DNA of 64,000 bases from Escherichia coli (GTDB lineage Bacteria > Pseudomonadota > Gammaproteobacteria > Enterobacterales > Enterobacteriaceae). Each line of letters opens with the position of its first letter. The first letter of the stretch is position 1. The stretch lies in the NCBI RefSeq assembly GCF_041248615.1, contig NZ_CP158426.1. The stretch is one strand, 5' to 3'. The position numbers are program-made. Positions 54,317-57,300 of this stretch are shown in pieces.

Positions 54317-57300
54317 TGATGGGCGGTATTCTGAAACGGCGATTGTCGTGAGAACAGAATGGTTGCACCAGAATACAGATATAAAAAAACCGACATGACA
54401 GTCGGTTTTTTTATTTTTTCCGCCCAAGACTTGGTGGTTCCGGGCAGAAATGAAACAGTCCTCATCTAGCAAGTGAATTATAAGTCAGGATGCCTACATA
54501 TTCAAACAGCTATGCTGGCGATACAATCCCGACGCTAGTAGTGATACTGCCTCAAGGGATTACCGCAGTGCGGAAAAGTACTTTTAAGTCCTGGTCAGGA
54601 TACAGGTGGTGCTGATTCTGGTGCTCTAATTTGGAGAGAGGCAGTCCTCATCTAGCACATGAAGAAAATCATAGTTACAGGCAACGTAAGGGTAAGCTGT
54701 GATTGTCTTTCTCCCTTAAGGGAGCAACGGATGAAAACTTTTCTCGATAAAGTTCTCATCGTTCTTAAGGCGCTAATCGCGCTGCTGGAACTGATCCGTC
54801 AGTTTATTGAATAACTGAGGAAACGTAGCTAAGGCCGAAGGTTTACCACCTTCGGCCTTTAAAAAAACCGACATGACAGTTGGTTTCATATTTATTGCCA
54901 AAATGCACACTGTTCATGCCAGATGCGGCGTAAACGCCTTATCCGGCCTACACAATCTTGCAAAATCAATATATTGCACGATCCTCGTAGGCCTGATAAG
55001 CGTAGCGCATCAGGCAATCTAACGCCTGTCATCACCCCGCAAACTGCCTGAACAGCGCCTTACCCTTAACCAGCCGCGCGCCCAGCCAGCCGCCGAAAAG
55101 CGACAGCAGCAGCGCACCGCTGCACGGCAGCACAATCCACAATCGCCAGTCTGGCTCCCACGGGAAATCAAACACTTTCGCCTGCAACACTGCCAGCGCC
55201 GTTTCCGCACCCATTGCGGCCACCAGGCCAGAAACAAACCCGAGCATGGCGAACTCACACCACAACGTGGTGCGCAGCAGTTTTTTCCCCGCACCGAGTG
55301 TGCGCCACACCACCAGCTCCTGATGACGCTGACGCATTCCCACCTGCACCTGTGCCAGCAACAGCAACATACCGCAGGCGGTGACCAGCACCACCATCAC
55401 CTCCAGCGCCCGACTTACCTGCTCCAGCACCTGGCCGACCTGTTTTAAAATCGCGCCAATGTCTAACAGGCTAATGGTCGGGAACTGGCGGTTGAGTTGC
55501 GTCAACATGCCGTTGCCATTCTCCCAGCGGAAACTGGTAAGCCAGCTCTGCGGTTGCCCGTCTAATGCCCCTTCAGGGAAAATAAAATAGAAATTAGGCC
55601 GCAGACTTTCCCAGTCAACTTTGCGCAGGCTGGTCACTTTAGCGCGGAACTCCTGGGTATCGCCCATAAAAGTCACAGTATCGCCGAGGGCAACGTTTAA
55701 GCGTTTCGCCAGCCCCTCTTCCATTGACACTTCATCGGCTTTTGGCGGCCAGTTACCGGCGACAATCGGATTATGATCGGGCCGCGTATTTTGCCAGGTA
55801 AGATTGAGTTCGCGGTTAAGCGCCTCATCTTCATTGCCTTCTGTCGGCTTGTCGTTAATCGCCGTCAGTCGCGCCCGCACCACCGGATAAAATGATTCCG
55901 GGACTATCTGATGTTCCGCGAGGAACGTTTTTAGCGGCGTAACCTGTTCTGTGGCGATGTTGATTAAAAAGTAGTTCGGGCTTTCTGGCGGCAGTTGTTG
56001 TTGCCAACGGTCAAGCAAATCGCCACGCAACACCAACAGCAATGCCAGCAGCATAAAGGAGAGCGAAAATGCCGAAAGCTGGCTTAACGTTGACCACGGC
56101 TGACGTAACAGGCGGCTAACCGCCAGGCGCAGAGGTAGCGATTTCAGCGTCATGCGGCGAAGTACATTCAGCAGCATCCAGCCCAGCACACCGCACAGCA
56201 AAGCCAGTACTACCGCGCCCGCCAGCACCGCCCAGAGCAGCATACTGCCCCCCATTAATCCGGCGAGCAGCAGCACAACCACCACACTGACAATCGGCAG
56301 ATAAAACTTGAGCGGCCAGACGTTCGCGACCACATCATTACGTAATACGCGTAAAGGCTGCGTTGCCAGCAACAAGCGGTACGGTCGTAGCCCCACCAGC
56401 AGCGAGATGACCGTCATGGTGCCCAGCGCCCATAGCCACGGCCAGAGGCTGGCAGGCGGTAGTGCAGCAGGCAAAACGGGCTTGAGCAGCACCATCAACA
56501 CGTTTTCGAACAACAGGCCTATCGCCCCGCCGGTAACGGCTGAAAGCGTCAGCACCATCAACCACTGACCGACGATTAGCTTACGCAGTTGCGCTCGCCC
56601 TGCCCCCAGCGTTTTGAGGATCGCCACAAGATCGTAGCGACTGCGACAGTAATGATTCATCGCCACCGCCACCGCTGCCACTGCCAGCAGCAAGGTCAGA
56701 AGCGCCGAAAGCAGCAGGAACTGTTGCGAGCGTTCCATCGAGCGCCCCAGCGCGCCTTCGTCCTGTTCCAGACCGTACCAGCGTTGTTCGGGTTTAAGCT
56801 GAGGTAACAACCATTTCTCATAGCTGTCGAGCTGGTTCTCGTTGCCGCCGAATTTATAGCGCCAGGTGACCCGACTCCCCGGCTGCACGGCTCCGGTTTT
56901 ATCGACATCCGCCAGATTCATCATCAGACGCGGAGCCATCTGGAAGGGGTTAAAACCGGAATCCGGTTCCTGAATCACTTCTCCGGCAATCCGCAAGGTG
57001 GCATCGCCCACGTCAATGGTGTCGCCCGTTTTTAGGTTAAGCAGTGCCATCAGGCGTGGGGCCAGCAATACGCTGCCCGCCTGCGGTTTCAGGCCAGGGG
57101 GATTAGTTTGCAGATCGCCATACATCGGGTAGATATCATCCACCGCTTTGACGTTCGCCAGCTGCGGTGTGTCGCCTGCAAATGTCATGGTGGCGAAAGT
57201 CAGCTGCTTGCCGACTTTCAGGCCGCGCTTTTGCGCTTCCTCCAGCCACGCTTGCGGCACTTCGCGCGAACTGCGCAACGCCCGATCGCCCGCCATAAAC

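Follow-up and report, generated by a model that had tools for sequence, protein, structure and literature searches.

Background

The closest described relatives of the locus treated here are the dinQ-agrAB module of Escherichia coli K-12 (PMC3567139, PMC5066626) and the dqlB-agrB modules of IncL/M, IncI1 and other conjugative plasmids (PMC12365149), which are type I toxin-antitoxin systems. Translation of K-12 dinQ is controlled by alternative pairings of four elements in the mRNA, with the antisense RNA AgrB binding over element 2, while AgrA does not repress dinQ in vitro (PMC5066626). The mechanism has been shown experimentally for dinQ/agrB (PMC3567139, PMC5066626) and for dqlB/agrB (PMC12365149), and in 2025 the DqlB/AgrB pair of pOXA-48 was validated by tests of toxicity and rescue and by compensatory mutations (PMC12365149). 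The dinQ-like (dql) family, found on the chromosomes and plasmids of enterobacteria, was described in 2016 with 14 published dql genes, and certain strains were noted to have such genes beside dinQ (PMC5066626). Matching antisense RNAs for dql loci have been predicted in T1TAdb (PMC8594479). The locus considered here lies in a stretch of 64,000 nucleotides (nt) from E. coli (RefSeq assembly GCF_041248615.1, contig NZ_CP158426.1), called the window below, where the 712-bp spacer between mnmH/selU (53225-54319, + strand) and ybbP (55032-57446, - strand) contains a predicted module of toxin gene and antisense RNA.

With a probability of roughly 0.85, this is a dinQ-like (dql) locus, a chromosomal and accessory paralogue of dinQ-agrB, the type I toxin-antitoxin module of E. 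coli. Canonical dinQ, in the arsR-gor spacer, is found in 5422 of 5426 complete E. coli genomes and is about 69% identical in nucleotide sequence to the present copy; because it is present alongside, the module between mnmH/selU and ybbP is a paralogue and not a relocated gene. It is a member of an already known kind: the family is published, both genes are recognised by curated models of protein and RNA, and the open reading frame (ORF) is annotated in RefSeq. The label given to this ORF by the NCBI Prokaryotic Genome Annotation Pipeline (PGAP) in most of the 1325 genomes that carry it is dinQ, "damage-inducible type I toxin DinQ". A preliminary description of the window, made before any database search, had rated the novelty of the module too high, since the gene is already annotated here in RefSeq and the dql family is published (PMC5066626).

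Family membership

The toxin ORF occupies positions 54731-54814 on the + strand and, as the preliminary description had it, translates to the 27-residue peptide MKTFLDKVLIVLKALIALLELIRQFIE, a hydrophobic single-helix peptide of the DinQ family. The segment ALIALLELIR, named in that description as common to DinQ, is indeed part of K-12 DinQ, VIDKAIIVLGALIALLELIRFLLQLLN. The ORF starts with ATG, and the Shine-Dalgarno (SD) sequence GGGAG (54720-54724) stands 6 nt before it as the right arm of the small palindrome that had been pointed out, CTCCCTTAAGGGAG at 54711-54724.

The peptide passes NF041472, the curated 'equivalog' model of DinQ in NCBIfam, with 40.9 bits against a cut-off of 30. The DqlB model NF041473 is failed (24.5 bits, cut-off 35), on which ground membership of DqlB was rejected. 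Near-identical database proteins have a precomputed assignment to PF28061 (DinQ); a Pfam-A profile search of the peptide gave no match, the library copy being presumably older than PF28061. On the RNA side, the Rfam model RF02891 (AgrB) matches positions 54381-54469 on the - strand with 53.6 bits (gathering threshold 40) over its full length, 1-84. The wider proposal of a DinQ/TisB/ZorO-like module in the preliminary description stands for DinQ and AgrB, whose models are both passed, and falls for TisB/IstR and ZorO/OrzO: the Rfam model OrzO-P reaches 24.1 and 19.5 bits, far under its gathering threshold of 60, and matches mainly over the terminator. Both zorO-orzO and tisB-istR-1 resemble the locus in having a divergent antisense RNA directed at a long toxin 5' untranslated region (UTR), a primary transcript that becomes active only through 5' processing and a small membrane peptide as toxin, but no sequence or model match to them was found here. 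In addition, tisB is under LexA control, and IstR-1 acts by blocking a ribosome standby site instead of re-closing an SD hairpin.

The agreement with K-12 dinQ-agrAB is closer (PMC3567139, PMC5066626). Both toxins have 27 residues with a common core, DK.(I/L)IVL.ALIALLELIR, in which 15 of 19 positions are identical. Both loci have a divergent, non-overlapping antisense RNA of the AgrB family whose 5' end pairs upstream of the ribosome binding site, a 5' UTR some 195 nt long that contains a 5' lock, the alternative 2:3 and 3:4 pairings and a conserved stem-loop, a UUUAA terminator and overlapping -35 hexamers. They differ in that the present locus is accessory (24% of genomes), lies elsewhere, begins with ATG instead of GTG and has one agr gene, as opposed to agrA plus agrB in canonical dinQ. 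The N-terminus is three residues longer here and the C-terminus three residues shorter (QFIE versus FLLQLLN), and the antisense pairing comprises about 15 perfect pairs (23 with G.U) compared with 30 of 31 in K-12, where the locus is core (99.9%).

Plasmid dqlB-agrB shares the mRNA architecture, the AgrB-family antisense RNA and the absence of an SOS link, but DqlB has 31 residues with a different N-terminal half, and the plasmid systems are addiction modules with 35 nt of complementarity (PMC12365149). The closest peptides, ...VLKAL(I/V)ALLELIRQFI(D/E) with roughly 78-81% identity over 27 residues, are encoded on a Salmonella integrative and conjugative element (ICE), on integrase- or Tra-associated contigs and plasmids and on Yersiniaceae chromosomes. 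These loci also have an upstream AgrB match (46-74 bits) and the same -10 box and start site, but their contexts are different, mostly mobile elements, their nucleotide identity is about 70% and their antisense complementarity extends over 30-31 nt and is much stronger (-47 to -64 kcal/mol). They are probably the 'dqlA' group of PMC5066626; a literature search on 'dqlA' gave unrelated papers only, and searches on the peptide string and on a 'second copy' of dinQ gave nothing specific. Compared with the relatives, the 27-codon frame differs by synonymous changes in 5-9 codons and by conservative replacements in 5-6, and the synonymous changes inside a conserved peptide argue for coding constraint.

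In strain E2348/69 RefSeq gives a product of 51 residues, starting at ATG 54659. This frame (54659-54814) is open and long forms are present in the databases, and it was used as query in the search for homologous proteins, but it is very improbable as the true product. No SD sequence precedes 54659, the DinQ model covers residues 29-50 only, and the 27-residue form of DinQ is the only one reported to be translated (PMC3567139). Furthermore, the upstream extension is in another frame in K-12 although the nucleotides are conserved, so that the conservation upstream of the ORF is one of RNA structure. The longer ORF was rejected on the missing SD, the non-conserved frame and the restricted model match.

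The antisense RNA and its target

The preliminary description noted a 16-bp sequence occurring twice upstream of the ORF and placed one copy in the toxin 5' UTR and the other in a divergent antisense RNA ending at a bidirectional terminator. This layout is upheld. The 16-mer CAGTCCTCATCTAGCA has exactly two copies in the window, one at 54456 and one at 54642. Both are on the + strand, and over 22 nt they are still 91% alike. About 6e-5 identical pairs of 16-mers would be expected by chance in the 712-bp spacer (own calculation: about 2.4e5 pairs x 4^-16). The upstream copy is located at the 5' end of the antisense gene, the other one within the toxin 5' UTR.

The predicted antitoxin is an AgrB-family RNA of about 89-90 nt on the - strand (54381-54470), with the 5' end (G)CUAGAUGAGGACUG... 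complementary to the toxin 5' UTR. Its gene is divergent from the toxin mRNA, 5' of it and non-overlapping. The predicted fold of the RNA, at -33.9 kcal/mol (z = -5.4), is a stem-loop whose loop reads CCACCAA, followed by a terminator. This terminator is a perfect 14-bp hairpin at 54381-54414 with T-runs on both sides. Scored as an intrinsic terminator in either direction, it closes mnmH/selU (+ strand) as well as the AgrB-like RNA (- strand), and it corresponds to the terminator stem of the Rfam AgrB model.

The antisense target in the toxin 5' UTR (54633-54657, + strand) consists of element 2, GGAGAGAGG (54633-54641), and the 16-mer (54642-54657). Starting at its 5' end, the antisense RNA forms an unbroken run of 14-15 Watson-Crick pairs; if four G.U pairs and one AxA mismatch are allowed, the pairing reaches about 23 nt. 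It covers element 2. An AgrB RNA is found upstream of every relative, and each antisense 5' end follows its own target sequence. Co-variation of this kind is to be expected of a working pair of toxin and antisense RNA. Duplex energies were compared on the restricted target plus seed, and whole-mRNA duplexes were set aside because they included large internal loops.

The GGUGGUGC sequence in the toxin 5' UTR (54605-54612) and the conserved loop ACCACC in the stem-loop of the AgrB-like RNA (54410-54440) are complementary to each other, and both are kept in six of six loci. The complementarity may represent a kissing contact or a trace of an origin of the antisense gene as an inverted copy of the UTR.

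The same antisense RNA is predicted to bind the target in canonical dinQ with -35.5 kcal/mol, equal to the -35.3 kcal/mol for its own target. One alternative is that the antisense RNA is the main product and acts in trans on canonical dinQ mRNA or on other targets, while the toxin next to it is of secondary importance or not needed. For zor/orz, MG1655 is reported to have an orphan antitoxin RNA, OrzP (PMC11264685), and alleles of the present module exist in which the toxin start is lost while the antisense gene and its promoter are kept. Such a role is nevertheless considered improbable. AgrB pairs far better with dinQ (-58.2 kcal/mol), and since AgrA does not repress dinQ at -42.7 kcal/mol, a value of -35.5 is unlikely to be of consequence. 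It is also with the module's own target that the RNA pairs longest without interruption, in a run of 18 as against 12.

Structure of the toxin mRNA

The mRNA was aligned for six loci: the present one, K-12 dinQ, IncI1 dqlB, the Salmonella ICE copy and two Yersiniaceae chromosomal copies. The toxin mRNA is roughly 330 nt long with a 5' UTR of 197 nt, its start at G54534 being set by homology to the K-12 +1 position. Conserved in the alignment are the -10 box and start site (in the present copy TACAAT, six nt and G54534), a stem-loop, the SD hairpin, a GGAAACGTA motif that follows the stop codon, and the terminator; the consensus fold contains 22 pairs with compensatory changes. The stem-loop AAGTCCTGG...GGTGGTGC... 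in the 5' UTR (54586-54621, + strand) hardly varies among the six loci, and its stem is part of the consensus structure. The terminator (54831-54862, + strand), a 12-bp GC-rich hairpin followed by UUUAA, aligns with the mapped terminator of K-12 dinQ and also shows compensatory changes across loci.

The 5' end of the primary transcript (54534-54553, + strand) is the equivalent of element 1, a 'lock' that pairs with the antisense target region. In the minimum-energy fold 54534-38 pairs with 54652-56, 54541-44 with 54648-51 and 54546-53 with 54638-45. The first 20 nt of the transcript thereby form 17 base pairs with 54638-54656, mimicking the antisense RNA and occluding its target. According to alignment and folds, element 3, UCUUUCUCC (54706-54714), and the SD hairpin CUCCC/GGGAG (54711-15 and 54720-24) together make up the segment 54706-54724 on the + strand. 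The hairpin is seen in both the minimum-energy and the consensus structures. Element 2, GGAGAGAGG, can pair with UCUUUCUCC plus the next base in 10 of 10 positions, with a U-A to A-U swap compared with other loci, and this 2:3 helix competes with the hairpin over the SD.

Alternative 1:2, 2:3 and 3:4 pairings that close and open the SD are thus present in silico, and from homology and thermodynamics the regulatory steps at this copy would be as follows. The primary transcript would be translationally inert, with its 5' end paired to the region around the 16-mer and the SD held in the CUCCC/GGGAG hairpin. Trimming of the 5' end would free GGAGAGAGG for pairing with UCUUUCUCC, and the SD would open. 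Binding of the antisense RNA to 54633-54657 would displace the 2:3 duplex so that the SD hairpin re-forms and, by analogy, might also direct cleavage by RNase III. Peptide that accumulates would be expected to insert into the inner membrane and depolarise it. Computed accessibility of the SD is 0.01 in the full-length mRNA, 0.17-0.22 after 5' trimming and 0.01 when the antisense target is blocked; the K-12 dinQ control shows the same pattern, with values of 0.05, 0.20-0.34 and 0.02.

Promoters and the SOS response

The sigma-70 promoter of the antisense RNA (54477-54505, - strand; TTGAAT-17-TATAAT) agrees with the consensus in 10 of 12 positions and is the only promoter-like match within 54300-55050. 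Its -10 box precedes by 7 nt the position homologous to the mapped start of agrB. The inferred toxin promoter (54499-54527, + strand) has the weak -35 box TATTCA (54499-54504), a 17-nt spacer and the -10 box TACAAT (54522-54527). This -10 box, the 6-nt gap and the starting G align with TATGAT, TATAAT or TATCAT followed by G-TTAGC in K-12 dinQ, IncI1 dqlB and the Salmonella and Yersiniaceae relatives. The -35 box overlaps that of the antisense promoter on the other strand (54500-54505), a layout common to the relatives.

The annotation invites the view that the locus is simply dinQ, LexA-repressed and damage-inducible in line with its RefSeq product name. In favour of this are the match to the 'equivalog' model of DinQ and the PGAP name. 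However, no CTG-N10-CAG sequence occurs anywhere in 54320-54900. A LexA matrix, built from operator sequences, gives its best score at the locus, 9.3, to GCCTACATATTCAAACAGCT at 54492-54511, compared with 22.9 for the K-12 dinQ operator as an out-of-sample control and 10.9 for the lowest training site. This LexA-like 20-mer sits on both overlapping -35 hexamers, has CTA in its left half-site and is probably non-functional. The matrix scan likewise found no LexA box in the Salmonella and Yersiniaceae relatives, and the true dinQ of the arsR-gor spacer, only about 69% identical, is present in the carriers as well. The chance that the product name describes this gene correctly is accordingly rated as very small, and dinQ proper was rejected on the failed LexA operator test and on the position between mnmH and ybbP instead of in the arsR-gor spacer. 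Because the promoter is without a LexA operator, expression of the paralogue is, judged from the sequence, probably not SOS-controlled and "damage-inducible" probably a misnomer for this gene. The best match to the matrix in the whole window is TACTATTTGCACAAACAGTA at 22199-22218 (score 15.9), again with CTA in the left half-site.

Distribution and allelic variation

The module is present in 1325 of 5426 complete E. coli genomes and is always chromosomal. In about 1200 of the 1325 carriers it is at least 99% identical, compared with identities down to 90-95% at the core dinQ locus; this low diversity suggests recent spread or strong constraint. Relatives with 60-80% identity were found in 1665 plasmid records, mostly conjugative, but this lineage itself is in none of them.

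The 108 bp at 54643-54750 are kept in 1135 of the 1325 carriers. Most of the carriers without this segment have a 108-bp deletion between the near-repeats AGTCCTCATC and AGTTCTCATC, for example strain WP7-S17-ESBL-01. The deletion takes the antisense target, the SD, the start codon and six to seven codons of the ORF, while the antisense gene and its promoter stay intact. Some of these alleles are still labelled dinQ by PGAP. Larger deletions also occur among carriers. In E2348/69 an element of the IS481 insertion sequence family, with a 6-bp ACAGCT duplication (54505-54510), is located exactly between the divergent promoters, and the -35 region of the toxin promoter is replaced.

Several observations weigh against the reading as a dinQ-agrB paralogue. 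The target, SD and start codon are gone in about 190 of the 1325 carriers (~14%), which shows that the toxin is dispensable. The cognate duplex (-35.3 kcal/mol) is the shortest and weakest in the family, in which other cognate pairs have -47 to -64 kcal/mol, and it is weaker than AgrA/dinQ (-42.7 kcal/mol), a pair reported to be non-repressing (PMC5066626). The toxin -35 box is poor. The shifts in SD accessibility are modest and purely thermodynamic, and a shuffle control of the 2:3 helix, with six sequences only, was not significant. Literature searches gave no published toxicity, rescue or processing data for this copy.

Some of these observations could mean that the locus is a decaying relic of a dinQ-like module from a mobile element, and that most strains no longer make the toxin or need the antitoxin. 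In addition to the toxin-killing deletions and the weak -35 box, the occurrence of relatives on ICEs and plasmids, the larger deletions and insertion, and the erosion of the antisense complementarity compared with the relatives would fit such a history. Decay of this kind is judged unlikely, since ORF, SD, target and both promoters are intact in 1135 genomes at no less than 99% identity. Moreover, all structural elements of the family are kept, compensatory pairs included, the antisense promoter is near consensus and the peptide differs from its relatives by conservative changes only. A dinQ-agrB paralogue remains the preferred reading.

Surroundings of the locus

The preliminary description stated that K-12 has rhsD and neighbours at this position and called the site strain-specific, which agrees with the genomes compared. 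K-12 has rhsD-ybbC-ylbH-ybbD-ylbI-ylbG between ybbP and selU, and strain Rb-50 has only repetitive extragenic palindromic (REP) elements. Compared with Rb-50 the insert comprises about 54334-54902. A simple target-site duplication bounding the module was unsupported, as the insert, set against the empty site, has no matching ends.

The module is bracketed by a direct repeat of 40 nt with 83% identity, 54382-54421 and 54860-54899, spaced 478 nt apart. Copy 1 is the AgrB-type terminator, and the repeat is a copy of that terminator, not duplicated host sequence. Copy 2, a partial terminator of the same type, adjoins the toxin terminator, stops at a REP block and marks the limit of the module towards ybbP. 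It may be what is left of a second agr gene, or else an insertion joint; read on the - strand, it could act as a terminator for ybbP.

The REP block, with palindromic units of the type found in bacterial interspersed mosaic elements (BIME), extends over 54905-55025 and is the source of thousands of short BLAST hits genome-wide. Within it the Rfam model ES036 (CssrF) is just over threshold at 54952-54994 and naRNA4 is under threshold. Elsewhere in the window, matches at the Rfam gathering level are the small RNA STnc480 at 41293-41359 (- strand, 84.9 bits) and a tRNA at 19799-19872 (- strand, 72.1 bits).

Implications

The finding is of modest practical value and adds no new class of system. 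The RefSeq name "damage-inducible toxin DinQ" on a paralogue without a LexA box could mislead analyses of the SOS regulon or of toxin numbers across strains.

A more speculative and improbable scenario is a LexA-independent module in a quarter of strains whose antisense RNA cross-talks with the core, SOS-induced dinQ, and of which the ~14% with the toxin deleted keep an orphan antitoxin that tunes DinQ after damage. If true, this would be strain-specific cross-talk, with an orphan antisense RNA setting the amount of DinQ after DNA damage.

The alleles at this site also make up a natural series: the intact module, the toxin deletion that leaves the antisense RNA an orphan, promoters split by an insertion sequence, and the empty site. 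This series could be used to gauge how much antisense complementarity an antitoxin of the DinQ family needs.

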